Source: Methanobacteriota archaeon (GTDB lineage: Archaea; Thermoplasmatota; Thermoplasmata; SG8-5; JAGLSY01). Taken from it: a DNA stretch of 64,000 bases. Below the pieces are notes generated by a model. It was not told the origin of the DNA and searched no databases. It worked only from the letters and a program-made list of their open reading frames with translations. The translations under genes were made by a program, and so were the position numbers. This document shows, piece after piece, positions 22,263 to 49,205 of the stretch; within the stretch, counting starts at the first letter, position 1; each line of letters opens with the position of its first letter. The stretch is taken from NCBI GenBank assembly GCA_020696385.1, contig JAEHCQ010000005.1:122658-186657 (forward strand). The letters are read 5' to 3'.

Positions 22263-22490
22263 ATGGTCAATATGACGCTGGCGATTCCCGAAGATCTCCA
22301 TGAGGTTATGAAACGTCACACAGAAATAAAATGGAGCGAAGTTGCCAGAAAGGCAATGTGGGAATATGCAAAAAAACTGGAAATGCTCGATAATATGGTC
22401 GCGGAAAGTAAGATGAAAGAAGAGGATATCGACGAGATAGATCATATTGTGAAAGCAGCCATTTTGAAACACTATCGGAAAAAGAAATAG
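22263..22490 (+). CDS. Ribbon-helix-helix antitoxin (VapB-like)
   Basis: MVNMTLAIPEDL...EIKWSEVARKA; immediately upstream of a PIN gene. Confidence 0.75.
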   Translation: MVNMTLAIPEDLHEVMKRHTEIKWSEVARKAMWEYAKKLEMLDNMVAESKMKEEDIDEIDHIVKAAILKHYRKKK

Positions 22491-22919
22491 ATGAAGCTGG
22501 TAATTGACACAAATATAATCATTTCCGCAATTTTGAGGGATTCGCTGACAAGGAAGATCCTCCTGTCACCTTATTTCGATCTTTATACTCCAGATCATGC
22601 TATGTCAGAGCTCAAGAAGCACTCAGACTTTCTTGCTAAAAAAACAGATCTGGATAAAGAAACGATAGAGCAAATAATAGCATTGATCATGGATTCGATC
22701 ATCATTATTCCATCTAGCACATTCGAGAAATACCTCCCGATTGCCATGGATGAGATGAAAGATATAGATGAAAATGATTCTCCATTCATTGCCCTGTCAC
22801 TTTCCTTTTTAAATGATGGAATATGGAGCAATGACAGGCACCTCCAAAAGCAGAAGCTTGTTCGAGCATGGACAACCAGTGAAATGCTGATGGAATTACA
22901 GAATCCCCGAAAACCATAA
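22491..22919 (+). CDS. PIN-domain toxin (VapC-like)
   Basis: MKLVIDTNIIISA, E, DENDSPFIAL, IWSND. Confidence 0.88.
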   Translation: MKLVIDTNIIISAILRDSLTRKILLSPYFDLYTPDHAMSELKKHSDFLAKKTDLDKETIEQIIALIMDSIIIIPSSTFEKYLPIAMDEMKDIDENDSPFIALSLSFLNDGIWSNDRHLQKQKLVRAWTTSEMLMELQNPRKP

Positions 22920-23573: not shown

Positions 23574-24551
23574 ATGTCAGTCTCTATTATAGGCACACGT
23601 GGGTGCGGAAAATCTACATTCATCGGACTTCTCCATCAGGGTATGGAAATGTATACAAACAAGAATCCAGATAATTTCGTTTATTATGTAACTGCTGAAG
23701 TGGGTGATAAGATCCTGGACATAAGGAACAACCTGCTCCAGGGAGAATATCCCGCTGCCACCACTCGGCATCAGCTGGAACAATTGAGATTCCTCATGGG
23801 TTTCAAACCAGTGGGTGTGGAGAAGGTAGTCAATCTCGTTAAGAACTTCTCATCCTTCGGCCAGTACGGAGATTACCTGGGTATGATCCTCAGTGTTTAT
23901 GATATCGCGGGAGAGGATATCCAGGAATTCAAGATCAATAAGCAGGTGACGCAGATCCTGAAGCAGGTCTTCGAGTCCAATATCCTTGTTATCATTGTGG
24001 ATTGTGCTAAGTTCACCAATGCCACCAGTGGCAGAAAATACGTGGACATGCTCGAATATGACAAGGAACTGGCTGTCATCATAGCTGCCTATGTCGAATA
24101 CAGAAGCAAGGGCAAGTTCAAGGAGAAAGTGAACCCCATCTTCGTATTCGCAAAGATGGACGCACTGGACACAGAAATTGCCAGTAATTACTTCGACAAG
24201 CTGGAAAGAAAATACGATGATAAATACAATTACGATACAGGCAATGAGCTTATGGAATCCTACCTCAGTGCTTCAAGAGCCGCAGTATATGGGGCGCAGA
24301 AAGTTGGCGTGCCATTGGAGACCGCGAAGTTCTTCTACAGCTGGGTTCAGGAAGACAAGATCGACGGAGTTGCCCAGGCTGGTGCACAGCATAAATTGAT
24401 GATCACAAAGCCGGATGGCGGACATACAAGAAATGTATTCCCGGATCACATGTACGAGGAGTTCCTGAATTACATCAGAACACTGTCATACATGTACTCG
24501 GATCCAAAGGAACATGTCGAGGATATCTTCGGTAAGGTCGGCGGCAAATAA
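23574..24551 (+). CDS. TRAFAC-class P-loop GTPase domain protein
   Basis: G1 GTRGCGKST, G2-like YPAATT, G3 DIAGE, G4 FAKMD. Confidence 0.75.
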   Translation: MSVSIIGTRGCGKSTFIGLLHQGMEMYTNKNPDNFVYYVTAEVGDKILDIRNNLLQGEYPAATTRHQLEQLRFLMGFKPVGVEKVVNLVKNFSSFGQYGDYLGMILSVYDIAGEDIQEFKINKQVTQILKQVFESNILVIIVDCAKFTNATSGRKYVDMLEYDKELAVIIAAYVEYRSKGKFKEKVNPIFVFAKMDALDTEIASNYFDKLERKYDDKYNYDTGNELMESYLSASRAAVYGAQKVGVPLETAKFFYSWVQEDKIDGVAQAGAQHKLMITKPDGGHTRNVFPDHMYEEFLNYIRTLSYMYSDPKEHVEDIFGKVGGK

Positions 24552-24583
24552 GAACATGCCAGTTCACGATCCCTATCTCAAAG

Positions 24584-26860
24584 GTGGTAGCGCGTATGCA
24601 GGATGAACTTCATATAGGTGAATTCGACAATAATCCCTTCACAATAGAGGGCGGTAAATTCCTTACTGGCCGAACCGCGGTCATGGGGATGAGCGGCTCT
24701 GGCAAGAGTTATCTCATCGGAGTTCTGTGCGAGGAGCTTTGCAAGGCGGACCTTCCCTTCATCATTATCGATCCAGAGGGAGAATACAAGAGCCTGAAAG
24801 AGAAGTTCGATATTGTCTGGGCCTGTAATGACCCGGAAGCTGATGTGCTTCTCAATTTCCAAATATGCGAGAAGCTGGCAGAGGTCGCCGTCAATAAGAA
24901 CCTCCAGCTTATTTTTGACACATCCGAGTCGAGTAATGAGTTCGACCTTGTGGAAGAATTCCTCAAACATTTTTACATTATCGAGGACAAGGTAAGAAAA
25001 CCCATGCTTCTAATAATGGAAGAAGCAGACAGGTTCGCTCCCCAGAGCAAGGGCGATAGGATCGACGAGCTGATGGAAATAAGCAGGCGCGGTAGAAAGC
25101 GAGGCATCGGCCTTGTGATCGCCACCCAGAGACCTGCGATGGTGGACAAGAATATCTTATCCCAGTGCGGAAACCAGTTCATCGGCAGGCTGAGAACGGA
25201 GAATGACCTGAATGCGGTCAGCCTCTTCTTCAGGTCAAAGTCCACACTCAATACAATTCCAGATCTGGAAGACGGCCATTTCTACTCAATGGGCGATATT
25301 TCTTCCACCATCCAGAACGTGCATATCAGAACAAGGGAGACCACACACGGTGGCGGAACTCCCGGAAGAGCCAGCAGTAAAAAGAATGAACTGAAAGACC
25401 TGAAAATATTCCAGGACAAGCCGATGGTGATGCCATCGACACCATCACCGCCAATAGCTGGATCTCCTAATCTCGTGATCGAGGATGTTTTCCTCATCTA
25501 CAATGATGGAAGATTGATCAATCATCAAACTCGTAGGCTCAAGCCGGATGTGGACAATGAGATACTGAGCAGTATGTTCACGGCAGTCCAGAGCTTTATC
25601 AAGGATTCTTTTGGAAGTGGTGGCAGGACGAAGGTTCTCGAGCGTCTGGACTTTGGAGACAATTCGGTATTCATCGAGCATGGTGAGAATTGTTATCTCG
25701 CCATGGCCGCGATGGACATTGGGGAGGAGGTACTGCAGGAGCAGCTCAAATGCGCCAGCAGGGACATATCCAGAGAATATTCCGCCCCCTTGCGAAAGTG
25801 GAACGGGGACTTCGATGAATTCGCTGGTGTGGAATCTTATATCCAGAAGCTTCTGGCAGGAGAATACAAAAAAGGATGTATGCTCATCAATCCTTCGAAG
25901 GCTGCATCAACCGGATCAGAGATCTCGGCTTCAGACATGAAATCCAAAACCGAGCCAGTGGTGGAGAAAGCAGATGAAATATCTGATACAATTCAAGATC
26001 CGGGAAGCAAGCCAGCTCCCTCGATCATTAATAATATTAGCAGTAGTAATAACAATAAAGGAAGAGATAAAATGGAAATAGATCATTTTGTGTGGTATCC
26101 TATCCACGGAAAGGGGTACCAGGATAAGCCAGTAGCGATATCGGGGGATTTCAATCCAGGATTGTTCACCAATGTGTTCAAGAAGGAGTTCGCTCCGCTT
26201 ATGATGAGTTACAGTCAGAAGGATTATCGTGGCTTCATGCTCTTTGACAAGCCCAATATACGCCATGTTCTCTTCTCCTTCATCTACCACAAGGTCATCG
26301 ACGAATACGGTAGAAAAGGGGTGATCCATCATTCTGCCATCATTGACAGAAAGGATCTGCAGAGCGGTAAAGTTTCCTTATTCGACATCGAAGAGGCTAT
26401 GAACAAGTTCGACGAGGCAAACCCCGCGCCAAAGGGAGACATACCGCCTTTGGAAGTTCCAGCCTATGAGCCTGGGCAATACAGATACCAGGACAAGATA
26501 TTCAAGTACATTTCAAAGGCTGCTGTCGAAATACTGGCAACCAGGATGATGACCGCCAGCCGTAACCGAACATCATTCAGATGCCAGGGCGCGGGCACGA
26601 AGGCCAGGAAGAATATCGCATTATATCTGGTCGAACTGCTGGGCTTCAGGGGTGGAATACCGATCTCATTCACGACAGAGAGACCGATATCGGCTGAATA
26701 TTACGGCTTCTTCAATCTCGCGGTTACCGAGCGCGCGATAGCACCAGATGCGAATGCCGAGGACTGGGCAGTGATCAACTGGGATGAATTGAATGTCGGC
26801 ATGCCCAGGGTGGGCGGCAAAGAGGAAGTTTACAAATTAATTGATGATGCCTTCTCCTGA
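24584..26860 (+). CDS. HerA/FtsK-like (DUF87) ATPase fused to a roadblock/longin-like domain and an unknown C-terminal domain
   Basis: GMSGSGKS, IIDPEGEY, EEADRFAP, RGRKRGIGLVIATQRPA; then IEDVFLIYNDGRLI...MFTAVQSFIKDSF; then a ~260-aa domain from M at 26071. Start may be ATG 24596. Confidence 0.75.
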   Translation: MVARMQDELHIGEFDNNPFTIEGGKFLTGRTAVMGMSGSGKSYLIGVLCEELCKADLPFIIIDPEGEYKSLKEKFDIVWACNDPEADVLLNFQICEKLAEVAVNKNLQLIFDTSESSNEFDLVEEFLKHFYIIEDKVRKPMLLIMEEADRFAPQSKGDRIDELMEISRRGRKRGIGLVIATQRPAMVDKNILSQCGNQFIGRLRTENDLNAVSLFFRSKSTLNTIPDLEDGHFYSMGDISSTIQNVHIRTRETTHGGGTPGRASSKKNELKDLKIFQDKPMVMPSTPSPPIAGSPNLVIEDVFLIYNDGRLINHQTRRLKPDVDNEILSSMFTAVQSFIKDSFGSGGRTKVLERLDFGDNSVFIEHGENCYLAMAAMDIGEEVLQEQLKCASRDISREYSAPLRKWNGDFDEFAGVESYIQKLLAGEYKKGCMLINPSKAASTGSEISASDMKSKTEPVVEKADEISDTIQDPGSKPAPSIINNISSSNNNKGRDKMEIDHFVWYPIHGKGYQDKPVAISGDFNPGLFTNVFKKEFAPLMMSYSQKDYRGFMLFDKPNIRHVLFSFIYHKVIDEYGRKGVIHHSAIIDRKDLQSGKVSLFDIEEAMNKFDEANPAPKGDIPPLEVPAYEPGQYRYQDKIFKYISKAAVEILATRMMTASRNRTSFRCQGAGTKARKNIALYLVELLGFRGGIPISFTTERPISAEYYGFFNLAVTERAIAPDANAEDWAVINWDELNVGMPRVGGKEEVYKLIDDAFS

Positions 26861-26863
26861 GGT

Positions 26864-27199
26864 GTGATGATTATAGAAGAAGTTGCTGATCAACCTGAAA
26901 CTGAGAATGAGCCAATTAAGGACGATGCGACATTATCTTTGATATTTGGAATAGTGTCATTGATACTGAATCCCGTGTTCATCATGTTCCCCCTGTCCTT
27001 CATTGTGGGAACTCATTTGCTCGGGATATTCATCAGCACGCCATTCGCATTATTGGCGATCTTATTATCATATCATTATTGGAGAAAAGATAAGGAGGAT
27101 TTTAAGTCGATAATCGGGATCACATTTTCATTGACCACACTGATGTTCATCATCATATTGTTCTCCGTTCTCCTATACTCTGGATTCGAGGTATTTTGA
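26864..27199 (+). CDS. Small membrane protein (3 TM)
   Basis: Three hydrophobic segments; GAGGTG RBS overlapping the previous stop. Confidence 0.65.
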   Translation: MMIIEEVADQPETENEPIKDDATLSLIFGIVSLILNPVFIMFPLSFIVGTHLLGIFISTPFALLAILLSYHYWRKDKEDFKSIIGITFSLTTLMFIIILFSVLLYSGFEVF

Positions 27200-27225
27200 T
27201 CGATAAACATATGTCTAGCTGAGCA

Positions 27226-28722: not shown

Positions 28723-28834
28723 TTCAATCACCAGTCCCCACTTTCTTGAAAACTAGAATGAAATGTTGATGTATTAAGTTTTGCTCTTACTCTTGCTCTT
28801 GCAAAGGTTATTACGTGCATAAGGACATCCTGCT

Positions 28835-29329
28835 TTGAACAATATGCTTCCCGAATGGCTGATCCTGGATCTTACGCAAAATCAACTGTATGGCCTTGTC
28901 TTTCTTATAGGCTCTTTCACAGTGGCCACCCTGAGCGATCTGAAGTACATGAAAGCACAATCGGAATTCGTCGAGATCTGGGTGCTGGCCTTCATTGTTT
29001 TTCTGGTTATCGACATCTGGAAATGGGATTCGCTGGATCAGACCCAGACCATGATAAAATGGGCTATTATTTTCATATTCATGCTCCTTTCCCATCATTC
29101 GATCGGGGTCATATTCAAACTGGCTAGGGGAGATGTATTCGCATGTGCGGCGGTCATGGCACTCATGTCACCAGCTTTGATAGTCGTCTTCATCATAATT
29201 CTAAAAGTATCCGACCTATTGTTCAGGCCCATTCTGAGAAAGTTCGGGAGCGGCAATGCCTACCCCTTCATGCCCATTGTCATGTGTGGGACATTGGCGA
29301 TAATGGGAATTGGACTGTATCTGGCGTAG
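28835..29329 (+). CDS. Minimal A24-family (prepilin/class III signal peptidase-like) membrane protein
   Basis: About 6 TM helices; first Asp motif LSDLK, second motif LARGD (GxGD-like), C-terminal YPFMP. Confidence 0.6.
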   Translation: MNNMLPEWLILDLTQNQLYGLVFLIGSFTVATLSDLKYMKAQSEFVEIWVLAFIVFLVIDIWKWDSLDQTQTMIKWAIIFIFMLLSHHSIGVIFKLARGDVFACAAVMALMSPALIVVFIIILKVSDLLFRPILRKFGSGNAYPFMPIVMCGTLAIMGIGLYLA

Positions 29330-29416
29330 ACAGATACTGGCTAACACTAATTCTAATACAAATCGAGCAATTTGTTGATAGGAGTGAGAGTTATCGCATT
29401 ATCTATCAGAGAGCAT

Positions 29417-31291
29417 TCAGAGAGCATTCCCACAGCTTGGGCAGGCTTTCCAGCCAGGCTGTGTCTCGGACCCACAATGTGGACAAGATGGTTTGCTGGA
29501 CAGGGAACCTCCGCAAGCCGGGCAAGCTTTCCAGCCCGGCTGGGTGTCAGCCATACAGCTTGGGCACTTATTGCCGCTCTGTTGCTGCTGAGCCGGCTGC
29601 ACGCCTTGCTTGGATTGATCCACTGTGATGACATTAACTGGCTGCTGGCCAACTCCATATCCTCCGCCCCCCACATATTGTGGTACATTCTGTTTGGATG
29701 ATTCCATCATCTTCGCAGCCTGGCCAGTCATATCCACCTGATGATTTCTCTCGCGGTCCTCCGCGTCGCGGTAGGTGCTGATATTGTGCTTCTGACCCTC
29801 CGAGCGCATGAATTCCTCGGATGCCTCGCCTCCAACTGTTCCCAGCTGTCGCTTGGTAGCTTCCTGCTGTAGGGACTGCATCTGGATGGTCTTCTGATCG
29901 TACATTTTCTGAAGTATCTCCAATTTTTCAGTTGGAGCATCGATGATCTTCATCTCCAGTTCGTGGATATCCGTTTGTAGCTGAGATATCTGGGCGTCAG
30001 CTGTCGTGACACCCATCTGCTGGGTATCCACATCCATCTTCTTCATGTCCTCGACATGATCCTGCTCCTGAGCCTCCCTCATTCGCTTCGCTTCTTGAAC
30101 CTGAGCAAATGCGTCCATGGCTATCTGAGCCTCGCCTTTTTCCTTGTCGATATCAGCCTGATTCTGCGCCCTCTGGATATCCACATCGGTCATTCCAGCA
30201 TCGCGTTGCTGGCGTATGTTCTCATCATGAGCCATACCGGACATGTCACGATCATGCGTCTGGGCCATACTGTCCCTCTCCAGGGATGATGTCAATTGCA
30301 TGGATGCCAGGCGATCGGCTCCCGCTTGCCCTCCGAAGGCAAGCGCCCATTCCTTCTCATTACTTGTCTTGTCAACTTCATAATCGCGATTCAGGATATT
30401 GATGCTGGCCTTCATGTCAAAGTCCTTGTCGAACTCCGCTTGTTCGAAGATCTGCGTCTGTTTCTTCTTGTGGGCTGCGAGTGCGTCACTGGCTGTCCTG
30501 TCAAAGACCATGTATAACTTGAGTAAGTTCAATCCCCACATTTCCATGGTCTTTCTTAGCTCGACCTCGGCCGTGGTCTCGATCTGCTTGATGAGATCCA
30601 GGTTCCCCTTGATATCACTGGCTTCAACCGCTGACAATTGTGGTGTGAGAACGCCTACCAGTGCCTCATCGTTTATCAATTCCTCAAGATCGGATTTGAA
30701 AAGGAACTTGCCAACTGCCATATCTGTCCTGTTCTGGAATGTGAGCTTCTTGAGTATGCCGCCAGTGAAGATATTCCTGTTCCTACCCCACCATGTGCTG
30801 TGCTTCTCATTCTGTGTTGGCTGGTATGGTTCGGCAGACCTCATCAGATTTATGATCCTGGTGACATTGTTCTGGTTTATCTGGACACGCATGGTGCAGG
30901 TTCCCTTGACCTCTTCATTATCGCGTGAAAGTATACCTTGAACTTCCCATTCTGGCTGACCGTTCTGATCGACCTCGGGTTTTCCAGAAGGATCGAGCTT
31001 CCACATGCTCTTTCCGATCTGAAGGTTCATATCCATTGGAACCGTTGAAACAAATAGAAGTTGAACGGATTCTCCTCCGCCCATCTTGGACCTGAACCAG
31101 TCGATGACCCCTTGCCTTGATACTTCCAGCTTGGTCTGTGTGAGAACATCCTCGATCTTGCCGTTCCTGATGTACATCACGGCTTCTCCAGGACCTACTA
31201 TTGCTTCCTTTAAGAAATTCGGTATCTGGTCTCTGTCCACTAATTGAGCGATTACTTCTTCGCCATCTATGTTATTCCACATTTGTATCAT
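29417..31291 (-). CDS. SPFH (band 7/YdjI-like) domain + long coiled coil + two CxxC...CxxC zinc ribbons
   Basis: IVGPGEAVMYIRNGKI, MWGLNL; A/E/Q-rich coil; duplicated C-terminal CPxC..TQPGWKACPxCG; TAATG overlap with upstream gene. Confidence 0.75.
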   Translation of the reverse strand: MIQMWNNIDGEEVIAQLVDRDQIPNFLKEAIVGPGEAVMYIRNGKIEDVLTQTKLEVSRQGVIDWFRSKMGGGESVQLLFVSTVPMDMNLQIGKSMWKLDPSGKPEVDQNGQPEWEVQGILSRDNEEVKGTCTMRVQINQNNVTRIINLMRSAEPYQPTQNEKHSTWWGRNRNIFTGGILKKLTFQNRTDMAVGKFLFKSDLEELINDEALVGVLTPQLSAVEASDIKGNLDLIKQIETTAEVELRKTMEMWGLNLLKLYMVFDRTASDALAAHKKKQTQIFEQAEFDKDFDMKASINILNRDYEVDKTSNEKEWALAFGGQAGADRLASMQLTSSLERDSMAQTHDRDMSGMAHDENIRQQRDAGMTDVDIQRAQNQADIDKEKGEAQIAMDAFAQVQEAKRMREAQEQDHVEDMKKMDVDTQQMGVTTADAQISQLQTDIHELEMKIIDAPTEKLEILQKMYDQKTIQMQSLQQEATKRQLGTVGGEASEEFMRSEGQKHNISTYRDAEDRERNHQVDMTGQAAKMMESSKQNVPQYVGGGGYGVGQQPVNVITVDQSKQGVQPAQQQQSGNKCPSCMADTQPGWKACPACGGSLSSKPSCPHCGSETQPGWKACPSCGNAL

Positions 31292-31809
31292 TATTTCCAC
31301 CCCCTCAAGAAATCTTCCCTATCCTTGTAAGAATTCCTTGAACCGGTAATATACTGGCGAAGGCTTCTGAGTTCCTTCACGGCATCAATTTCATCGCCAT
31401 TCATTATCATTCCCTCGATAACTCCCGTGGCTTCGGTGACATTGACGATATTTTCCAAAATGTTGAGATCGAACTCCACCAGGGTCTTGAGATCACCTTC
31501 ACCTGGCGATCTTGATTTGTTAGTTGAAAAGAAACTGTACTGATGGCCAACCACGGACATTGTGATATCATTGGAGAAGATATCCAGCTCGTCCTTGACC
31601 TTTTTAAGTGAGTTTATGGAGTCCGTATCCTTCTTGTCATAGAGTATGTCCAGGATATTCCGCGTATTCTTCACGGACTTGTCGATCTCGGCCATCAACT
31701 TCTTTCTGACCAGATTGTCATCCTCTTTTACCTTATCCTTTCTGTATCCCGTGTACCCGGACACCATTTTGCAAACAGAAGTTATCGCAGTGATCAGAAC
31801 CATATTCAT
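31291..31809 (-). CDS. Conserved helical hypothetical protein, translationally coupled to the SPFH gene
   Basis: GYTGY...DDNLVR, YSFF, LVEFD; GGGGAG RBS. Confidence 0.7.
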   Translation of the reverse strand: MNMVLITAITSVCKMVSGYTGYRKDKVKEDDNLVRKKLMAEIDKSVKNTRNILDILYDKKDTDSINSLKKVKDELDIFSNDITMSVVGHQYSFFSTNKSRSPGEGDLKTLVEFDLNILENIVNVTEATGVIEGMIMNGDEIDAVKELRSLRQYITGSRNSYKDREDFLRGWK

Positions 31810-31866
31810 ACTCCCCTGTGTTCTTATGTATTGAAAGGTTATTTAAGTTAATAAGGGTTTCGGGAT
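31810..31866. promoter_or_regulatory. Probable bidirectional BRE/TATA promoter
   Basis: 57-bp divergent gap containing GAAAGG-TTATTTAA, read as TTAAATAA on the other strand. Confidence 0.5.
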
Positions 31867-33756
31867 ATGGAGGTTGAATACTTGATCCATAAAGGGTTCG
31901 GAAGGACAAGAGCCATTGTCATATTATGCATGACCTTTCTTTTATTCAGTGGTCTCTCTCCACTTATGATACATAATGCCAGTGCCAATACAGTCTCTGG
32001 TTACATATACCCGGATGAATACGTGATCTATTACATCGATGTCGATTCCTATACATATATCGACATCTCGGTAAGCTGGTATGACAGCTCCAATGATATC
32101 GATCTCTACCTCTACGACGAGTCTTCCACATTGGTTGACGATAGTGAACTTACAAGTACAAACACCGAGTCCATATACTACTATCCATCAAGCACTGGCT
32201 CTTACGCCCTTTACATATATGGATACAGTATCTCCGGCAGTGAATATTATACCCTTTACTGTAACTTCTATGCCTCCCTGAGCACGGTGGACGATACACC
32301 AACGACCACGGATGACAGCTACGAGCCAGATGATTCATATTCGTCCGCATCGTACATATCAGATGGCAGTGTCCAATCACATAGTATTCTGGATGGTGGG
32401 CTGGATGTCGATTGGGTGACCTTCACCATATACGAGACCAGTGATGTGGTCATTGAAACATCAGGTTCAAGCGGCGATACCCAGATATATCTGTACGATG
32501 ACTCGGGAGTGCCATCCGTCTACTCCGATGTGAATGATGATGGAGGAACTGGCTCCTTTTCAAGAATCAGCAAGAATTTCCTGGCCTCGGGCACTTATTA
32601 TGTTAAGATAATAGAATATGGCCAGGATCAGGAAATATCATCATATAGTGTTGAATTTTCAGCCGAGCCCAGCCTCGATCTCGGTATTGGCGACATCGAG
32701 AACCTGGTCTATCTGGACTATATCTGCTTTTTCATATTCTTTATAATTTTCATAGTGATAGTTGCGGGAATAAGATCATCCCGCAAGAAGAAAAAGAAAA
32801 AGAAGCAAAGGAATCTGGAGCAACAGATCCAGTCCCAGCATTATCAATCTCAACAACAATACCAGCAGCAACAGTCTAGACAAGCTCAGCAATATGCTCC
32901 ACAGCAGGCTCCGCGTGTTCAGCAGCAACAAGTCAAACAGACTCAGCAGACCCAGGGGGTTCAGCAGACCCAGCAGGTCCAGCAAACCCAGCAACCACAA
33001 TACCAGCAACAATACCGAACCCCAGTGCCAGCACCAGTAGTATCCACTCGGCAAGATACTGCTAAAGAAGATCGTTCAAGGCAAGAGGCGGAGCAGAGGC
33101 AGAGGGACGAGAGAGAAAGGAAGGAGAGGTTCGAAGCTGACAAACGAGTGAGGGAAGAGAATGAGAGAAAAGCCAGGGAGGAAAAAGGACGCCTGGCTCG
33201 GATCGAGGAAGAGAAACAGAGATCAAGAAGCTATGACACACCTCAGGCCGAGATGGACAGGCGAGCTACACAATACGAATCCATGGCCAGTATGCAGGAG
33301 AAGGAAAGCGAGAACATCCACGCGATGCTGCATACCAGTGAGGAATATGGAAGGCCATTACCTCCACCGCCACCACTTGATATGCCTCCGGCAGATGATC
33401 TCCATTCCCAGCCGAGCGAGAAGATGACCAAAGCTCTGGAAGATTCATGCAAGCTCATCATGCCAACATATCTTGAGCCGGATACCACATCCGAGATAAT
33501 CATAGACATTGAGAATGATTCTGGAATGAACCTGGGCAATGTCACTGTCGACCTCTCTGATCTGCAGAAATATTTCGAAATTCAGGATAAGATAGAATTC
33601 CCGGGTATTCGAAATGGCATGACCCTGAGAGAAGATGTCAAATTCAAACCCAAATACGATGAGGGATCCTTCCCCGTGGTGGTGTCCATAGTTTCAGAAG
33701 GTTCCACTGTGAAATTAAATTACACGATCAAGGTCGGAGGCACGGAGATATATTAG
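31867..33756 (+). CDS. Membrane protein: signal peptide, 2 extracellular PPC-like domains, TM, Gln-rich/coiled/poly-Pro linker, C-terminal beta-rich domain ending TIKVGGTEIY
   Basis: DIDLYLYD, DDSYEPDD, GDTQIYLYD (PPC-like); TM + RKKKKKKK; RPLPPPPPL. Confidence 0.8.
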   Translation: MEVEYLIHKGFGRTRAIVILCMTFLLFSGLSPLMIHNASANTVSGYIYPDEYVIYYIDVDSYTYIDISVSWYDSSNDIDLYLYDESSTLVDDSELTSTNTESIYYYPSSTGSYALYIYGYSISGSEYYTLYCNFYASLSTVDDTPTTTDDSYEPDDSYSSASYISDGSVQSHSILDGGLDVDWVTFTIYETSDVVIETSGSSGDTQIYLYDDSGVPSVYSDVNDDGGTGSFSRISKNFLASGTYYVKIIEYGQDQEISSYSVEFSAEPSLDLGIGDIENLVYLDYICFFIFFIIFIVIVAGIRSSRKKKKKKKQRNLEQQIQSQHYQSQQQYQQQQSRQAQQYAPQQAPRVQQQQVKQTQQTQGVQQTQQVQQTQQPQYQQQYRTPVPAPVVSTRQDTAKEDRSRQEAEQRQRDERERKERFEADKRVREENERKAREEKGRLARIEEEKQRSRSYDTPQAEMDRRATQYESMASMQEKESENIHAMLHTSEEYGRPLPPPPPLDMPPADDLHSQPSEKMTKALEDSCKLIMPTYLEPDTTSEIIIDIENDSGMNLGNVTVDLSDLQKYFEIQDKIEFPGIRNGMTLREDVKFKPKYDEGSFPVVVSIVSEGSTVKLNYTIKVGGTEIY

Positions 33757-33784
33757 GCTGGATGGCCTTTGAGATGGTGATACA

Positions 33785-34603
33785 ATGAAAGTCGCGTTTA
33801 GATCAGATGTCGGAAAACTAATGCAGATCAATGAGGATATTGCAGGATGGGTGACCTTGAGGACATCCGGGATGTCAGAGATGTTGAATACCCCTGGTAC
33901 CTCTGAAATGTCTGTGATATCAAAAATATCACAGCAACCAGGCATTGATCGAATTGATATTCTTTTCGTATCGGATGGAATGGGCGGCCATAAGAAAGGA
34001 GATGTGGCAAGCAGGATAGCCACCCAATACCTGACATACCTCGTCCAGAACGCCATATCCCGATCAGAGGGCGACATAGTTCAGGAGCTGGTCGTGAAAC
34101 TGCCTGGCTACATGAAGAACATAAACACTCATTTGAGATCCCAGGCAAGCGGCAATCCAGACCTAAGTGGAATGGGATGCACGCTCACTGCCGCCATAAT
34201 GATCGGAAACAGCATGGTGATAGTCCATGCTGGTGATAGCCGGCTTTACCACATAGCTGACGGGCGATTGCGCCAGGTGACAAAGGACCATTCTTTTGTT
34301 CAAGAGCTTCTTGATAAAGGTGAGATACAGCCAGATGAGGCTTTTGACCATCCAAAAAAGAATAAAATTCATACCGCCCTCGGCCCCAAGGATGACATAA
34401 ATGCTGATGCCTTTGTCGAGGTCTGGGAAAGTGGTACATTACTCTTCTGTACTGATGGCCTGAATGACATGCTGAGAGATCACGAGATACTGGATATCGT
34501 GAATGCCAATCCAGATCCCGAAGATATGTGCGAGAAATTGGTCGAGGCGGCTCTTGAAAAGGGCGGGCATGATAATGTCAGTGTGTTGGTTGCCAGTAAA
34601 TGA
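33785..34603 (+). CDS. PP2C/PPM-family Ser/Thr protein phosphatase
   Basis: NED, SDGMGGH, GMGCTL, HAGDSRLY, TKDHS, CTDGL, GGHDNVS. Confidence 0.95.
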   Translation: MKVAFRSDVGKLMQINEDIAGWVTLRTSGMSEMLNTPGTSEMSVISKISQQPGIDRIDILFVSDGMGGHKKGDVASRIATQYLTYLVQNAISRSEGDIVQELVVKLPGYMKNINTHLRSQASGNPDLSGMGCTLTAAIMIGNSMVIVHAGDSRLYHIADGRLRQVTKDHSFVQELLDKGEIQPDEAFDHPKKNKIHTALGPKDDINADAFVEVWESGTLLFCTDGLNDMLRDHEILDIVNANPDPEDMCEKLVEAALEKGGHDNVSVLVASK

Positions 34604-34635
34604 TCGGATCTGAAATTTGAGGAGATGGTAAAATT

Positions 34636-35283
34636 ATAACAGACTGGATATTCGACAATGTTTTCCTTTTCATATTCTTATTCTTCTTTTTATTCTTCGC
34701 CATGGCCTATGTCATGTACTACATATTCGTGAAGAAGAACCCCGCGCTTGAACACCTGGGTGTCGGCAAACAGATGGACAATATCCTCAAGCCCACACAG
34801 CAACAACAGCAACATCAACAGCAGCATCCGAATTATCAGACACAACCACAACATCAAGCATACCCTGGCTCTGCACCACCTGTGAGCCAGGGGCAGCGCG
34901 TGCAACCGCAACAACAGCGACCAGCTCCCTCACCCCCTGGAGAGGGGATGTCCAGTATCAACCTGAAAGATCATTATTCGATCCAATTACCGCATTTTAT
35001 CAATTCTGGCATGACTGAATCGGTCATAGTCACCCTGTATAACAATACCAGCACGGAAATAGATGACATAAGTATCGATCTTTCAGACATGACGGATTAC
35101 TTCGATATCGAGGGAGAGGTGAAAGACTATCGATTGAAACCAGGAGCCGAGATCGTCAAGACCCTGAGGATTAGGCCAAAATTTGAAGAAGGTGTGTTCC
35201 CATTCAAGATAAAAATAAGTACTGGTTCGATCTATGTAGAAGACGAGCACTCGATCAAGGTCGGGGGCACGGAGATCTATTGA
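34636..35283 (+). CDS. Membrane-anchored Gln/Pro-rich protein with C-terminal domain ending SIKVGGTEIY
   Basis: The frame is open upstream of ATG 34702 and encodes the rest of the TM helix (VFLFIFLFFFLFFA). Probable non-canonical start at ATA 34636. Confidence 0.75.
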   Translation: MTDWIFDNVFLFIFLFFFLFFAMAYVMYYIFVKKNPALEHLGVGKQMDNILKPTQQQQQHQQQHPNYQTQPQHQAYPGSAPPVSQGQRVQPQQQRPAPSPPGEGMSSINLKDHYSIQLPHFINSGMTESVIVTLYNNTSTEIDDISIDLSDMTDYFDIEGEVKDYRLKPGAEIVKTLRIRPKFEEGVFPFKIKISTGSIYVEDEHSIKVGGTEIY

Positions 35284-35292
35284 GGTAGGAAA

Positions 35293-36153
35293 ATGAGCAA
35301 TCAAAAAGAATTCACAGGAAGTTGGATACTATTGGTCCTATTGTTCATCATATTCTTTCCACTTGGGATTATCTATTTCTTTGTCATGTTGAAAGATAGA
35401 GGTTCAGCCTATGCTCCTCCATATTATCAGACAGTCCAGACCAATCAGACAAGAAATGCATATGCACCACCTCAATATCAGCCGAGTACCCAGCAACCAC
35501 CAGCACAGTATTCTGGACAGAGCACCCAGAGACCATCCGGTCAAAATACCAATCAGACAAGAAGTGCACAACAGGGTCAGTATTCACAGCCCTCACAATC
35601 ATCACAGCCAGCCCAGAATGTGCCTCAGTACGAACAGCCAGCTCAATACAGCCAGCCACAGTACAAAGCTCCACAATACAATTCACCTCAGCAAACGAAT
35701 CAAATGCAAAAACCACCAGCCTACACAACATCGCAGACAACAAGCCAGAGCCCACCAAATGTGGCTAGAGCTCCTGCGGCCCAGCAGGCTCCAATAGCAG
35801 TAAGGCCTCAGAAAATCATGTCCGAGGGCGATATCAGCTCCCTTTACAGTCTCCAGGTTCCCAGCTTCATGGATCCTGACATGACGGAAGAGATCATGAT
35901 CAGGCTGAACAATGACTCTGGCGATGATATCGAGAACATGCACATAGATTTCTCGGATCTCAGAAGCTTTTTCGACATAGATGAGGATGTCAATATCCCC
36001 TACTTTGGAGATGGTGTCGTACTGGAGAGAAGGGTGAATATCAAGTCGAAGGAAAGCTCTGGCAGCTTTCCCGTTAGAGTGAAAATATCCGCGAATGGAA
36101 AGACAGTCACGGAGAGGTTCACTATCAAAGTTGGTGGAACCGAGATATATTAA
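35293..36153 (+). CDS. Membrane-anchored Gln/Pro/Tyr-rich protein with C-terminal domain ending TIKVGGTEIY
   Basis: N-terminal WILLVLLFIIFFPLGIIYFFV, ~140-aa low-complexity linker, paralogous C-terminal domain; GAGGTA RBS. Confidence 0.8.
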   Translation: MSNQKEFTGSWILLVLLFIIFFPLGIIYFFVMLKDRGSAYAPPYYQTVQTNQTRNAYAPPQYQPSTQQPPAQYSGQSTQRPSGQNTNQTRSAQQGQYSQPSQSSQPAQNVPQYEQPAQYSQPQYKAPQYNSPQQTNQMQKPPAYTTSQTTSQSPPNVARAPAAQQAPIAVRPQKIMSEGDISSLYSLQVPSFMDPDMTEEIMIRLNNDSGDDIENMHIDFSDLRSFFDIDEDVNIPYFGDGVVLERRVNIKSKESSGSFPVRVKISANGKTVTERFTIKVGGTEIY

Positions 36154-36196
36154 GTAAGCAATTCCCGATTTTGTCAAGACTAATTAATAGATTACG

Positions 36197-38620
36197 TCAC
36201 TTATTCGTGTTGAAGGCGACTCCATCCTGCAAATTGATGTCACCGCCGCCTTCCCCAATGTTCGACTTGTAGATCACACTGTCCTTAATATCGACATTGT
36301 AGGTGACCTGGGTCACCAGCATCGCCTTTTCCAGCCGGATCGCTCTGTCAATAGATTCAAACTGTCCCTGCAGGAATTTTTCTGCAATATCCGGGTCTAT
36401 GGAATAACCATCGAATCTGAACTCGATGGTGCCATCCTCTTTTCTCCAACCACCGCATAACATCAGGAAACTGAGCGGACTCTTCGTGGGCTTTCCAGCG
36501 TATAGAAGCTGGAAACTGTTCACGTCCTCGTACTTGCCCACGCAATGGAGATTGCTGCAAGCATCGGATAATCGAGATCTGGCCTTCTCTATCGTGATAT
36601 CACTGTACATGATCTGACGCGATGCCCTTGGCAAAGTCTTGATGGACATCATGAATTCATGCTCTCTCATCTCCAGTGGCTCGATGAGCGGCATGATGTT
36701 TCCAGTGTCCACCACGGGCGCGTTTATGCGCCTTTTCTTGCCCATGTGATCGTGATATGAAATGTCAAAGTGTATCTTGGCCTTCATCGCTCTCTTGGCC
36801 TTCATGATGAAGGTTATTGCCTGCGATTCATTGGAACCCAGGTATGGAATATCCCGGACTCGCGAATCTGGCTGTAATAATTCCAGGCCTTCGGGTATGT
36901 CCAGTGTGATAGATACCCGATTGTGAGTGTATGGAGATACGTTATTCAGCTTAAGCTGAACATTGATCTTATCACCATCAATGGTCCTGTCAACCTCGGC
37001 ATCCAGACCTCCTGAACTGGGTCTGAAGCTCTCGCCGTATCTGAAGTACAGGTCCTCGTCACGGACCAGTCTTCCGCCAACTCTGACTTTCATCGGAACC
37101 GTGAAGTCCCCGCCAGAGCCTGCATCCTTCAGGGTCATCTTTCTTTCATGGTATCTTTCCTGACCTGGCATCAGATCGTATTTGAGGTTCAAATCCTTAT
37201 CACAGGTGAATAATTCACCCGCGCCCACGTAATCGACAACGATATTCTTCCATGGAAGATCCGAATTGTTCTTCACTGTCGATCGGAGATCAAGCTGATT
37301 GCCATTCCAGTCCCATGATGTGGTGATCTCCAGATCATTGATCTCCTCATAAAATTCCTGTATCTTGTTCTTGTCGCTGATGAATTCAAGGTGAATGTAA
37401 GGCTCTCTGGGCTTATCCGGATTATAGACCAGCCAGATATCGTCCCCGTCCTGAAGTTTTTTGAATTTACCGGAAATTACACGAGCCTTGTTCAGGAAAG
37501 TTCCATTGTGACTGTCGCAATCGGTTATCACCCAGTCCCCGCTTCCCGCGGCATTCATGATCTCCGCGTGTTTCGGGCTGGACACGTATTTCGCAGGCAG
37601 GTATACATCATTCTGCGGTGACTTGCCGATCCTGTTCTTCGATTTTTCCAGAAAGAACACCGTCCCGGGCTTCACACTAGGGTCCTGGCTGTTTATCACT
37701 TTGATGAGCGGTTTGAATCGAATTATATCCTCGATACCGGACAGCGTGACCTCCACATCCCTCAATCTGAATCTCAATTGAGGGTGGCGCTGGGTACTCC
37801 CCTGTATCAGGTTGCTGAATATACTAGCTCTGCGAAGACTGAGATAATCCTTGTCATTTGCCAGGAATGGTGGGGATGAGCTGGATAGGAGGAAATACAA
37901 TGTCGCGCCCAATGAGAAGATATCATTGGCCTTCGTGGGCTTTGTCCTCGCCATGACTTTTCCGGGCGGAGGTGGGGGAGGGAAATTATGGTTATTGTTG
38001 CTATGTCCAGGAGGTGGTGGTGGGAATCTGGAATTGTTATTGTGATTATTGTGACCACCATTCTGTGAAAGCTCTGGTGGTGTGTATGAGCCATGGGACA
38101 CATTGGCAGTCACGAGCTCATCATGATGGACATTATAGGCAGTTCCGAAGTCAATGAGAATGGGTACCTTGTTCGGGCCCAGCAGGATATTTTTTGGGCA
38201 AATATCCCTGTGGATTATTCCCTCACCATGCATGTATGATATGACATCGCACAGTCTTTTCAAAATGTCCAGGGCTTCCTCATTGGTCGCTTTACAGCAA
38301 TCATACACCTCTGCCAGGCTCTTTCCCTCGACATAATTCATCACAAGACCATTGCTCTTGTGAATGTACTCCACGAACTTCACGATCTGGGGATGATCCA
38401 GCATGGCCATGACATTGGCTTCCTGCCTGATGGAATCACAATATAGATCATACTTATGCTTGACATCATGCTTTGGGAGTTTCAGGACCAGCTTATCATC
38501 ACTGCCCACGGCCTTGACAACATATAGTATGCTCATGCCGCCGCGACCCAGCTCGCGCTCGACCACGTATCTTTCCTCTACGATGTCGCCTTTGGACAGA
38601 ACTCTCGAACCATATAGCAC
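36197..38620 (-). CDS. Hanks-type Ser/Thr protein kinase + FHA + two beta-sandwich domains + alpha/beta platform-like domain
   Basis: LGRGGMS, VLK, HRDICPKN, DFG, YTPPE, DIFSLG; FHA IGKS...VSSPKHA...DCDSHNGTFLN. Confidence 0.9.
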   Translation of the reverse strand: MLYGSRVLSKGDIVEERYVVERELGRGGMSILYVVKAVGSDDKLVLKLPKHDVKHKYDLYCDSIRQEANVMAMLDHPQIVKFVEYIHKSNGLVMNYVEGKSLAEVYDCCKATNEEALDILKRLCDVISYMHGEGIIHRDICPKNILLGPNKVPILIDFGTAYNVHHDELVTANVSHGSYTPPELSQNGGHNNHNNNSRFPPPPPGHSNNNHNFPPPPPPGKVMARTKPTKANDIFSLGATLYFLLSSSSPPFLANDKDYLSLRRASIFSNLIQGSTQRHPQLRFRLRDVEVTLSGIEDIIRFKPLIKVINSQDPSVKPGTVFFLEKSKNRIGKSPQNDVYLPAKYVSSPKHAEIMNAAGSGDWVITDCDSHNGTFLNKARVISGKFKKLQDGDDIWLVYNPDKPREPYIHLEFISDKNKIQEFYEEINDLEITTSWDWNGNQLDLRSTVKNNSDLPWKNIVVDYVGAGELFTCDKDLNLKYDLMPGQERYHERKMTLKDAGSGGDFTVPMKVRVGGRLVRDEDLYFRYGESFRPSSGGLDAEVDRTIDGDKINVQLKLNNVSPYTHNRVSITLDIPEGLELLQPDSRVRDIPYLGSNESQAITFIMKAKRAMKAKIHFDISYHDHMGKKRRINAPVVDTGNIMPLIEPLEMREHEFMMSIKTLPRASRQIMYSDITIEKARSRLSDACSNLHCVGKYEDVNSFQLLYAGKPTKSPLSFLMLCGGWRKEDGTIEFRFDGYSIDPDIAEKFLQGQFESIDRAIRLEKAMLVTQVTYNVDIKDSVIYKSNIGEGGGDINLQDGVAFNTNK

Positions 38621-49178: not shown

Positions 49179-49205
49179 ATAATATGTATATTGAACTTCA
49201 ACTAT

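Follow-up and report, generated by a model that had tools for sequence, protein, structure and literature searches.

Among the known systems closest to the genes considered here are GTPase-centred conflict systems. As described by Kaur, Burroughs, Iyer and Aravind (2020, PMC7159879), DO-GTPases typically carry a glutamate in Walker B, and the corresponding family models derive from mobile conflict systems, where duplicated GTPases are frequent; the same account places beta-sandwich (FNIII) proteins with transmembrane (TM) segments in GAP1-N2-type systems. Published descriptions treat longin and roadblock domains as established GTPase platforms (PMC3747258, PMC3521125), and an operon reported from Asgard archaea combines a LAMTOR1-like Roadblock protein, a small GTPase that is Rab-like, and a DENN protein (Liu et al., 10.1101/2020.10.19.343400). 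In T6SS, TagF is described as binding the FHA protein, and PpkA, PppA and Fha are reported in almost half of 741 TagF contexts (bioRxiv 10.64898/2025.12.08.692957). A tagF-pppA fusion has been described in Agrobacterium, in an account that also has FHA domains read phosphothreonine together with the +3 residue (PMC3953482).

Gene content of the locus

The window, i.e., the whole 64-kb stretch of DNA that was analysed, comes from a Thermoplasmata archaeon, and its computed ORF map places 12 tightly packed genes at positions 23574-38620. The first-pass annotation described them as contiguous, with no housekeeping gene in between, and this description stands, as 12 of the 12 genes lack a housekeeping family match in Pfam and NCBIfam. 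Membrane proteins or carriers of membrane-proximal domains are encoded by eight of the 12. The region divides into three compact sets, namely A (g1-g4), B (g5-g7) and C (g8-g12):

23574-24551, forward strand: g1, 325-aa DO-GTPase-like TRAFAC GTPase
24584-26860, forward strand: g2, FtsK/HerA-type ATPase with a longin-like domain and a TagF/DENN-like C-terminal module
24584-25363, forward strand: g2 N-terminal domain, residues ~1-260, FtsK/HerA-type P-loop ATPase core
25496-25918, forward strand: g2 middle domain, residues ~305-445, longin/roadblock-like insert
26066-26857, forward strand: g2 C-terminal module, residues 495-758, two-lobed, TagF-like/DENN-like
26864-27199, forward strand: g3, small membrane protein of 111 aa
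27226-28731, reverse strand: g4, 501 aa, ER/K-rich helix and conserved C-terminal domain
28835-29329, forward strand: g5, 164-aa polytopic membrane protein, possible A24 peptidase
29417-31300, reverse strand: g6, 627 aa, SPFH-like N-domain, coiled coil and C-terminal double zinc ribbon
31291-31809, reverse strand: g7, 172-aa helical protein
31867-33756, forward strand: g8, 629-aa bitopic protein with PPC ectodomain and GGTEIY tail
33785-34603, forward strand: g9, PP2C Ser/Thr phosphatase
34702-35283 from the listed ATG, 34633-35283 in the extended form, forward strand: g10, membrane-anchored GGTEIY protein
35293-36153, forward strand: g11, 286 aa, N-terminal TM anchor, linker and GGTEIY domain
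36197-38620, reverse strand: g12, Hanks kinase-FHA protein of 807 aa

The GTPase and its partner ATPase

The product of g1, initially called small-GTPase-like, is a GTPase but not a Ras-like small one. Each of the five G motifs is retained, together with the Walker B Glu, read from the alignment as G1 GTRGCGKST, G2 Thr63, G3 DIAGED with the Glu, G4 AKMD and G5 Ser256. Its nearest Pfam family is DO-GTPase2 (26.7 bits, just below the cut-off of 27), and among 36 aligned members of the g1 family this model was matched in 23 (E<=0.01) and DO-GTPase1 in nine. The family is small: a collection of 1.84 billion proteins contains 64 representative clusters of it at E<=1e-3.

The downstream gene g2 encodes the HerA-like ATPase noted earlier, matching DUF87 at 56.6 bits (cut-off 23.2). 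Its ATPase core has Walker A GMSGSGKS, Walker B EEAD and an ATQRP motif, in columns that are invariant in an alignment of 15 sequences, and the core profile matches HerA chains in the PDB; the NCBIfam and PADLOC HerA models give generic matches far below their equivalog cut-offs. The roadblock/longin domain ascribed to this protein was upheld only in modified form, at the level of fold and not by a Pfam sequence match. The low-confidence AF2 model of the insert (pLDDT 59) has a beta-beta-alpha-beta-beta-alpha order, and Foldseek retrieved almost solely longin/roadblock structures, with AP sigma, zeta-COP, Sec22b, Mon1-Ccz1, LC7 and LAMTOR at the top (best E 2.8e-3), yet none at E<=0.001; the ESM lead for the insert is Roadblock/LAMTOR2 (score 0.87). 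Besides the window protein, only P0001 and P0003 carry the insert in the alignment of 15, and only these two reach 99% coverage of g2 among the 120 homologues listed; the related locus L001 matches g2 residues 4-429.

For the C-terminal module (AF2 model with pLDDT 71 and pTM 0.78), the best Foldseek match is TagF (9t0n; E 3.2e-5, 314 columns, TMq 0.47), with modest TM-scores of 0.40-0.47 against TagF. It is followed by FNIP2, SMCR8/C9orf72, a Lokiarchaeota longin domain and DENND1A/B-Rab35, the DENN entries having E-values from 5.6e-3 to 2.7e-2. Pfam searches at E<=10 returned no match for either the insert or the module, and no sequence-profile support for longin, TagF, DENN or, in set B, A24. 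What is conserved of the locus in relatives is the pairing of the GTPase with a motor ATPase predicted to bear folds resembling eukaryotic GTPase regulators.

Association of the GTPase with the C-terminal module

Among related loci, an HMM of the C-terminal module matches L002 (as a stand-alone ORF), L003, L005 and L015, and ORFs of the g1 family are present in L001, L002 (two), L003 (two), L005 and L015. The GTPase therefore accompanies the module in five of five related loci, counting L001, which is cut before the module and is 91% identical to g2, and in none of the 15 loci with other DUF87 ATPases, 12 of which have at least 2.5 kb on each side. In L002, the stand-alone module ORF directly precedes the two GTPase genes, and therefore the GTPase tracks the module rather than the ATPase.

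The remaining genes of set A are g3, which starts 4 bp past g2 and has two to three TM segments judging from hydrophobicity, with no significant family in Pfam or NCBIfam and no counterpart in the related loci, and g4. The long coiled coil attributed to g4 was recovered as a charged ER/K-rich helix of ~250 residues (residues ~100-350; 48-62% E/K/R/Q and 0-2 Pro/Gly per 50 residues). Its conserved C-terminal domain (residues ~365-501) recurs in an L003 ORF directly upstream of the GTPase (phmmer 1.5e-14); the L002 counterpart matches this L003 ORF at 1e-52 but not g4 itself (E 0.18). For set A as a lineage-restricted GTPase switch, we infer that g1 would dock on the non-ATPase part of g2, i.e., the TagF/DENN-like module and the lineage-specific longin-like insert, and that its nucleotide state would gate the hexameric FtsK/HerA-type ATPase. 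The small membrane protein g3 may hold the ATPase at the membrane, and the ER/K helix of g4 may space or tether it.

Alternatively, set A could serve in defence against viruses or in conflict, like other DO-GTPase systems; the HerA-type ATPase would then be the scaffold or effector, a role with precedent in defence systems that contain HerA, and sets B and C would be unrelated neighbours. The DO-GTPase1/2 matches of the g1 family, given the origin of these models, are in line with this scenario, as are the two GTPase copies in both L002 and L003, the generic PADLOC HerA and mad8 matches of g2, the patchy occurrence and small size of the g1 family, the AbiEii and AAA_14/DUF4143 ATPase genes adjoining the L002 core, and the lineage-specific domain accretion in g2. 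However, no effector (nuclease, pore, NADase) was recognised in g1-g4 with Pfam, NCBIfam and PADLOC, no specific PADLOC system was matched, and no GAP1, GASH or other partner family was detected, the g2 C-terminal module, g4 and the neighbours in related loci being without significant Pfam matches. No g1 relative was present in the plasmid and phage collections searched, and no viral fold match was found. In L001, moreover, g1 and g2 occupy the same chromosomal context as in the window and are 97% and 91% identical to their counterparts, whereas the Ski2-like and Ogt genes on the flanks reach 81%; a higher identity than that of housekeeping-like neighbours is the opposite of rapid diversification. 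We regard a conflict system as rather unlikely. The GTPase-centred NTP-dependent system proposed in the first-pass annotation is supported for g1-g4, by the DO-GTPase models and the coupling to the module, and not for the whole 15 kb.

Putative membrane scaffold genes

Set B would provide a membrane scaffold with SPFH, coiled-coil and zinc-ribbon parts, a small partner and a possible intramembrane peptidase of the A24 type. The latter assignment, made for g5 at first reading, was not borne out by sequence comparison, as neither Pfam (E<=10) nor the PDB sequences gave a match. The protein has five to six hydrophobic segments, and it is a possible minimal A24 (GxGD-type) aspartyl peptidase only by a language-model lead (ESM Atlas score 0.92, PF01478 in 21 of 30 matches) and by two Asp residues with a spacing of 64 residues, which the sequence shows within SDLKY and ARGD. 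The SPFH scaffold call for g6 holds for its family, in which Band_7 was matched in six of nine sequences (E<=0.01) and zinc ribbons in all nine; g6 taken alone reaches only E 0.45 for Band_7. The g6 zinc ribbon matches DZR at 36.2 bits, and eight homologues of g6 were found. The end of g7, for which Pfam and NCBIfam gave no significant family, overlaps the start of g6 by 10 bp. A comparison with Psp-type networks gained no direct support, as no PspA/Snf7 family was found with Pfam.

Kinase, phosphatase and GGTEIY proteins

The PP2C and kinase-FHA assignments in set C were both confirmed. The g9 product matches PP2C_2 at 50.7 bits (cut-off 24) and has DGMGG, DGLND and GGHDN motifs, scoring 219.5 bits against NCBIfam Stp1/IreP (cut-off 230). 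In g12, the Hanks kinase (110.9 bits; HRD, DFG) and FHA (51.8 bits) domains exceed the Pfam cut-offs and are separated by a Pro-rich insert, with two beta-sandwich-like domains and a C-terminal domain without assignment following the FHA domain; PDB matches are StkP and PknB, and the match to Alpha_adaptinC2 is sub-threshold. The FHA domain (residues 330-396) reads GK instead of GR, followed by SxxH and NGT, with a Lys at the usual phosphate-binding Arg position.

The TM adaptors with low-complexity linkers were identified as g8, g11 and the start-corrected g10, the linkers being rich in Q, P and S. The g8 protein runs from a signal/TM segment (residues 14-36) through a PPC ectodomain (31.9 bits), a second TM segment (276-307), a poly-Lys stretch and a Q-rich charged linker to a cytoplasmic beta-sandwich-like domain ending in IKVGGTEIY. 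The in-frame stretch upstream of g10 aligns with homologues P0194 and P0195, and the extended form has a TM segment at residues 1-34; translation probably starts at a non-canonical codon near 34633, with the conserved TM segment upstream of the listed ATG at 34702. The paralogous C-terminal domains of these adjacent genes, three in number, are 28-35% identical to the g10 domain, and positive-inside charges place them on the predicted cytoplasmic side. The C-terminal nonapeptide IKVGGTEIY is the same in seven of seven sequences, including all four database homologues of the domain, whereas identity across the domain falls to 28-63%. Profile comparison shows g12 to be only weakly similar to the GGTEIY domain (hhalign probability 28%, E 6e-4), and the GGTEIY-domain HMM has no match in g12.

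We infer a transmembrane phospho-relay, in which the invariant Thr in the GGTEIY tail would be phosphorylated by the g12 kinase-FHA and dephosphorylated by the g9 PP2C, the g12 FHA domain would read the pT-x-x-Y end and the PPC ectodomain of g8 may serve as a sensor. Alternatively, the invariant tail could have a structural role as the final strand, serve some other factor as a docking peptide, or act as a degron.

Relationship among the three gene sets

All 12 genes might instead form one system. An envelope signal would then be sensed by the kinase-FHA/PP2C pair and the membrane proteins with GGTEIY tails, and the TagF-like module of g2 would be engaged by the FHA domain or by a phospho-target, so that the GTPase-gated HerA-type motor is released or blocked; the SPFH scaffold and A24 peptidase would organise the membrane site. 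The genes are contiguous, with no unrelated gene in between and with membrane or membrane-proximal products in eight cases; counterparts of TagF, Fha, PpkA and PppA are all in the window, and by analogy with TagF and Fha in T6SS, sets A and C might therefore interact. The TM beta-sandwich proteins of GAP1-N2-type systems are a further parallel. However, short gaps like those between g1 and g12 are common throughout the window, and so gap shortness is no argument for unity. The identical 10-mer AAAGGTTATT is located 23-24 nt ahead of the g5 and g8 starts and nowhere else in 64 kb, but with one mismatch it is not enriched (six found vs 3.5 expected).

In relatives, set A is found without B or C within the available, short flanks, and none of the 20 related loci has a g5-g12 homologue, the closest relatives being on short contigs. 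L001 ends inside g2, and only L002 extends ~5 kb past the GTPases; there, what comes after the GTPase core is an AAA_14/DUF4143 gene plus an AbiEii gene, and no gene of set B or C. Family spread is also unequal by an order of magnitude, with 64 representative clusters for g1 against eight homologues for g6 and four for the GGTEIY domain. The match lists for g2, g6 and the GGTEIY domain have no contig of matching size in common, neither the 48.8-kb contig with the closest g10 homologue nor the 28.5-kb and 32-kb contigs with the closest g2 homologues being shared across lists; the g12 domains, too, resemble the GGTEIY domain only weakly.

The first-pass inference of one system spanning 15 kb thus has no computed support. 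Because the closest relatives sit on short contigs, the unity of the 12 genes is unproven rather than refuted, and we consider it improbable. The case for separate sets comes in turn from a few short loci and from the contig comparison, which is indirect. The reading of this chromosomal region as a mosaic, with set A as a lineage-restricted GTPase switch and with the compact sets B and C working as outlined above, has as a whole about an even chance of being correct.

Comparison with known systems

DO-GTPase/GAP1 systems, as far as their published description (PMC7159879) goes, share with set A a TRAFAC GTPase with the Walker B Glu, at times present as two paralogues (here in L002 and L003), an adjacently encoded non-enzymatic partner with several domains, and TM components nearby. 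Set A differs in that GAP1-N/M/C, GASH, FNIII and effector domains were not detected, the partner is TagF/DENN-like and usually fused to an FtsK/HerA-type ATPase, and the host is an archaeon (Thermoplasmata) with a conserved syntenic chromosomal context. The archaeal DUF87 winged-helix ATPases (~520-620 aa), to which the g2 core is 43-65% identical, and HerA of defence systems share the Walker A, Walker B and Arg motifs with g2; in g2, however, the TagF/DENN-like module stands in place of the C-terminal winged-helix region, and a GTPase neighbour occurs only with this module.

Similar to the Asgard operon and to eukaryotic longin-DENN GEF/GAP modules, the GTPase of set A adjoins predicted longin/roadblock-like and DENN-like folds. 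In contrast to the Asgard operon, the GTPase lacks Ras/Rab-like character, the resemblance is confined to the fold level, the folds are fused to a P-loop motor ATPase, and the host is not an Asgard archaeon.

The TagF/Fha/PpkA/PppA system of T6SS resembles the window in that TagF (9t0n) is the best fold match and FHA, Hanks kinase and PP2C occur within 10 kb. The proposed target in set C, a membrane protein whose Thr would lie in the cytoplasm, is comparable to TssL as described in Agrobacterium (PMC3953482). Unlike T6SS loci, the window has no T6SS structural gene, an archaeal host and no sequence-level TagF match; a single protein combines kinase and FHA, and any connection of set A with set C is putative. 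Compared with SPFH/Band 7 scaffolds, g6 has the same succession of an SPFH-like N-domain and coiled coil in a two-gene operon, and differs by its C-terminal double zinc ribbon, its small family of eight homologues and the absence of an NfeD or PspA partner. Altogether, the locus represents a new variant of GTPase-centred systems, adjoining an unusual phospho-signalling module.

Gene order and genomic setting

We read the twelve adjacent genes g1–g12, which fill positions 23574–38620, as a mosaic of separate sets, a view held with about even confidence: set A (g1–g4), set B (g5–g7) and set C (g8–g12). The window is archaeal, encoding an STT3/AglB-type oligosaccharyltransferase, a Hef-type helicase-nuclease, a Ski2-like helicase with a DSHCT domain and RPA-like OB-fold proteins, and its nearest relatives are MAGs of Thermoplasmata. 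The related locus L001 from a Thermoplasmata archaeon is syntenic over four genes, namely the Ski2-like helicase (81% identity), Ogt (81%), g1 (97%) and g2 (91%), and its contig stops within g2. The GC content of the g1–g12 stretch (0.46–0.49) is unremarkable compared with the remainder of the window, and its ORFs are separated by intergenic gaps of -10 to 104 bp. According to the ORF map, they form five transcription units:

g1-g2-g3, plus strand
g4, minus strand
g5, plus strand
g7-g6, minus strand
g8-g9-g10-g11, plus strand, with g12 on the minus strand and convergent on g11

The compactness of this stretch is not special because small gaps, including divergent ones of 58–186 bp, are found all over the window. 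More generally, where an archaeal genome is compact, genes lying side by side are no evidence of a single system. Searches of the window with Rfam and for tRNAs returned zero matches, and an HMM search identified no additional copies of the GTPase, SPFH or GGTEIY domains elsewhere in it.

The first-pass annotation had assigned the entire 15 kb to one membrane-remodelling, envelope-stress or defence system. That all twelve genes belong to a single system is, in our estimate, unlikely. One observation in its favour is the exact 10-mer AAAGGTTATT, present on the plus strand at 28803–28812 and 31834–31843, 23–24 nt upstream of the g5 and g8 starts; these are its sole copies in the 64 kb, and it looks like a common BRE/TATA-type promoter core of the two genes. 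With one mismatch allowed, the motif occurs six times in the window versus 3.5 expected, which is not significant. A promoter or operator common to the whole cluster was rejected, since this single exact 10-mer, before g5 and g8 and unenriched at one mismatch, was all that could be found for it.

Several other genes of the window deserve mention. A PIN_2 gene (22491–22919), preceded by a small opposite-strand ORF, lies between the Ski2-like helicase and Ogt genes (22194–22919), and this pair is a likely toxin-antitoxin insertion because L001, syntenic otherwise, lacks it. At 6700–10634, two 513-aa CitF-like paralogues surround an ORF (8290–9096) whose match to citrate synthase is confined to the C-terminal half of that enzyme, making up an unusual citrate lyase/synthase-like trio. 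A 2230-aa protein with right-handed beta-helix/NosD and thrombospondin type 3 (TSP3) repeats (41173–47865) and a 590-aa protein also having TSP3 repeats (17142–18914) are probably surface proteins. Finally, a 1018-aa AAA_16 and TPR (STAND-like) protein adjoins a 377-aa TPR protein at 48045–52262 on the minus strand.

The GTPase of set A

The 325-aa product of g1 possesses the P-loop GTRGCGKST, a conserved Thr63, the motif DIAGED, which supplies the Walker B Glu, the motif AKMD, which relatives replace by TKxD or NKxD, and an invariant Ser256. In Pfam it comes closest to DO-GTPase2, with 26.7 bits just short of the cut-off of 27 (DO-GTPase models PF19993 / PF19975). Searched exhaustively, a set of 1.84 billion representative proteins yielded only 64 relatives at E<=1e-3; among the 36 aligned relatives, DO-GTPase2 was matched by 23, DO-GTPase1 by nine and MMR_HSR1 by eight at E<=0.01. 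In a quick tree, the window protein groups with those of L001 and L003 and with the database homologue P0130. The same tree has both GTPase copies of L003 as near neighbours, so this duplication looks lineage-specific, and an ancient split of the paralogues into two types was rejected. We also rejected a viral or plasmid origin, as PHROGs matches were generic only, no viral fold was matched and g1 relatives were not found in plasmid and phage collections.

The HerA-type ATPase and its C-terminal module

The first-pass call of g2 as a HerA-like ATPase is borne out. The N-terminal ~260 residues of this 758-aa protein form an FtsK/HerA-type ATPase core (DUF87, PF01935, 56.6 bits versus a cut-off of 23.2); the motif columns for Walker A, Walker B and the Arg finger are invariant in the ATPase alignment A1, as in the FtsK-HerA superfamily, and the g2-family profile matches PDB HerA chains with E down to 9e-22. 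The protein is far below the NCBIfam HerA equivalog cut-offs (57.9 vs 970 bits; 51.8 vs 850 bits). The core is 43–65% identical to DUF87 proteins of related loci and to the listed homologues of ~450–650 aa, and many DUF87 relatives bear winged-helix families at their C-termini, e.g., PF12802 and PF01978. Among the 120 homologues listed, just two, P0001 and P0003, cover 99% of g2, and L001 matches residues 4–429. An archaeal-type DUF87 ATPase 53–54% identical to the g2 core is also present in the loci L004 and L006, on contigs labelled as Myxococcales and Myxococcota MAGs, where it could reflect mis-binning or gene transfer.

The middle domain of g2 (residues ~305–445) is common only to the window protein, P0001 and P0003 in alignment A1 and has no match in Pfam. 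Its AlphaFold model (mean pLDDT 59) is a beta-beta-alpha-beta-beta-alpha unit, and nearly all Foldseek matches of this model are longin/roadblock proteins, including AP sigma subunits, zeta-COP, Sec22b, Mon1-Ccz1, LC7 and LAMTOR (best E 2.8e-3, none at E<=0.001; TM-scores <=0.65 normalised to target).

The C-terminal module (residues 495–758) is shared by few Thermoplasmata proteins, namely the homologues P0004–P0007 and those of L003, L005 and L015. Modelled alone (pLDDT 71, pTM 0.78), it has a sole Foldseek match at E<=0.001, TagF of Acinetobacter baylyi (9t0n, E 3.2e-5, probability 1.0, 314 aligned columns, TM 0.47/0.40). The next matches are FNIP2, SMCR8/C9orf72, a Lokiarchaeota longin domain, DENND1A/B-Rab35 and FLCN, with E values of 5.6e-3 to 2.7e-2 for the DENN modules. 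The predicted structure thus has the two-lobed alpha+beta / alpha/beta fold of TagF and DENN, a correspondence at the fold level only: the module finds no Pfam family at E<=10, a profile search of PDB sequences with the g2 alignment returns HerA chains only and leaves the TagF/DENN relation unseen, and sequence-profile searches for longin, TagF, DENN, A24 and GAP1 gave no match. In T6SS, TagF binds an FHA protein, and PpkA, PppA and Fha are found in almost half of 741 TagF contexts (bioRxiv 10.64898/2025.12.08.692957); this parallel speaks for a single system of all twelve genes. No T6SS genes were found within the window.

Distribution of set A among related loci

Twenty related loci were taken from 173 pattern matches in a search seeded by alignment A1, the closest of them lying on short contigs. 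ORFs of the g1 family were identified by HMM (E<=1e-3) in L001, L002 (two copies), L003 (two copies), L005 and L015, and the remaining 15 loci lack them, 12 of these having at least 2.5 kb on either side of the ATPase. The five GTPase-bearing loci are those with the module, the L001 contig ending before it. In L002, the module is a stand-alone 269-aa ORF directly ahead of the two GTPase genes, and the closest ATPase, whose C-terminal part resembles the winged-helix-type relatives, is encoded 3.9 kb beyond; this DUF87 ATPase is separated from the GTPase pair by genes for an AAA_14/DUF4143 ATPase and an AbiEii nucleotidyltransferase toxin (L002 4498–7993). Because the L002 module stands alone before the GTPases and away from the ATPase, the conserved couple is GTPase and module; the ATPase-module fusion is usual, not universal.

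The small protein g3 has two or three transmembrane segments, and no counterparts were detected among the related loci. The g4 protein contains a ~250-residue ER/K-rich helix, and its C-terminal domain recurs in an L003 ORF upstream of the GTPase (phmmer 1.5e-14). The L002 counterpart of the latter shares 44% identity with the L003 ORF (E 1e-52), its similarity to g4 (E 0.18) being not significant. Partner ORFs of L002, L003 and L005 matched no Pfam family at E<=1. In L003 (6294–7109) and L015 (2490–3149), a Glu/Lys-rich coiled-coil ORF is convergent with the GTPase/ATPase operon, a position reminiscent of that of g4, and lacks the g4 C-terminal domain.

The DO-GTPase models derive from GTPase-centric conflict systems (Kaur et al. 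2020, PMC7159879), and set A might itself be a defence system, a reading that partly overlaps the others and that we regard as rather doubtful. No effector was found in set A, the chromosomal context is stable, and g1 and g2 are more conserved than their neighbours. In PADLOC-DB v2, no system-specific model matched and the matches obtained were generic (HerA, mad8, mad6 and PD-T4-6 kinase); g1, g3–g8 and g10 had no match, and those of g9 and g11 were marginal only.

Proteins of set B

The g6 family, with only eight database homologues, combines an SPFH-like N-domain with a coiled coil and, at the C-terminus, zinc ribbons, the ribbons being present in all nine members. Band_7 (PF01145) is matched by six of the nine at E<=0.01 (best 5.8e-5), and g6 itself has an E value of 0.45. 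The end of g7, for which no family was matched, runs 10 bp into the start of g6. The product of g5 is a polytopic membrane protein of 164 aa. The lead to an A24 peptidase comes from a language model (ESM score 0.92; PF01478 on 21 of 30 matches), and Asp35 and Asp99 lie in plausible contexts, the second motif reading ARGD where the A24 family has GxGD. The HMM search at E<=10 and the PDB sequence search were negative for PF01478/A24.

Kinase, phosphatase and GGTEIY proteins of set C

Both signalling enzymes named in the first-pass annotation were confirmed. An intact Hanks kinase (110.9 bits, HRD and DFG present) is combined in g12 with an FHA domain (51.8 bits) and sub-threshold beta-sandwich domains; the FHA domain retains SxxH and NGT, and GK replaces GR. 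The PP2C phosphatase g9 matches PF13672 with 50.7 bits versus a cut-off of 24, contains the motifs DGMGG, DGLND and GGHDN, and scores 219.5 bits against the Stp1/IreP equivalog (cut-off 230).

Paralogous ~95-residue domains terminate g8, g10 and g11, and four further proteins with this GGTEIY domain were identified in the database within the length range searched. The sequence IKVGGTEIY is terminal in all seven, whose domains are 28–63% identical, and the N-terminal parts of the four homologues differ, consisting of either a TM anchor or HEAT repeats. The similarity of the g12 beta-sandwich domains to this family is weak (hhalign probability 28%, no HMM match). The GGTEIY domains are placed in the cytoplasm because poly-Lys follows the second TM segment of g8, which additionally has a PPC ectodomain, and VKK follows the TM segment of g10. 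Positions 34621–34701, in frame upstream of the listed g10 ATG (34702), encode a TM segment conserved in the homologues P0194 and P0195, so the true g10 start is probably upstream of 34702. No ATG, GTG or TTG occurs in 34621–34701, which points either to ATT/ATA as start codon or to a trap in the annotation.

FHA domains recognise pThr together with the residue at +3 (PMC3953482), and Tyr is located at +3 from the tail Thr in GGTEIY. The tail may be a substrate of the kinase and PP2C and a ligand of the FHA domain. A caveat is the Lys in the g12 FHA domain, where a phosphate-binding Arg is usual. An open-access full-text search found GGTEIY and VGGTEIY in no paper, and the tail is a straightforward candidate, open to testing, for a phospho-tag that FHA domains read in archaeal signalling.

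Separate sets or a single system

Homologue distribution speaks against a single system. Homologues of g5–g12 are absent from all related loci, among which only L002 reaches several kb past the GTPase core and the two closest relatives are truncated. The longest-contig sizes in the g2, g6 and GGTEIY homologue lists never coincide. The contigs with the closest g2 homologues measure 28.5 kb and 32 kb and that with the closest g10 homologue 48.8 kb, and no g6 homologue is listed for a contig of any of these sizes; this comparison is indirect and depends on the search word filter. The single-system claim of the first-pass annotation is therefore left without a computed link between sets A, B and C in either related loci or homologue contigs. 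The Psp-type comparison that it drew also found no counterpart, with no PspA/Snf7-family match in g1–g12 at E<=0.01 or in the searched sub-domains at E<=10.

A more far-reaching version of the single system would have Thermoplasmata, which are not Asgard archaea, own a GTPase/longin/DENN-TagF-like switch welded to a HerA-type motor and, in this genome, wired, like TagF to Fha in bacterial T6SS, to a kinase-FHA/PP2C relay that reads an invariant pT-E-I-Y tag on membrane sensors, the twelve genes being one membrane-signalling machine and TagF, DENN and the archaeal module sharing an origin as GTPase/FHA-binding platforms. We consider it highly improbable and retain the mosaic of separate sets.

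Comparison with known systems

Pfam includes GAP1 models, and no Pfam family matched the g2 module (E<=10) or the partner ORFs of L002, L003 and L005 (E<=1). GASH, FNIII or effector families were not found in g1–g12; g4 is helical and the domain of g8/g10/g11 is beta-rich, neither having a family match. In the open-access literature, we found no paper with the set A architecture, which the system lists of Kaur et al. may already include as a family, and, among the papers listed, none joining 'DENN domain' with TagF; the g2 module would offer a structural bridge from bacterial TagF to eukaryotic DENN modules.

Set A was likened to two known arrangements. The first is the DO-GTPase/GAP1 pair of the conflict systems, in which a TRAFAC GTPase, often duplicated and bearing a Glu in Walker B, goes together with a three-domain GAP1 protein (PMC7159879). 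The second is the Asgard operon of Roadblock, Rab-like GTPase and DENN proteins (preprint 10.1101/2020.10.19.343400). Set A falls outside both kinds because the partner families were undetected, its GTPase is not Ras-like and its module is fused to a HerA-type motor. Should the pairing hold true, longin/DENN-like regulation of GTPases, mostly considered in eukaryotes and the Asgard archaea, would reach a further archaeal phylum and would be tied to a P-loop motor.
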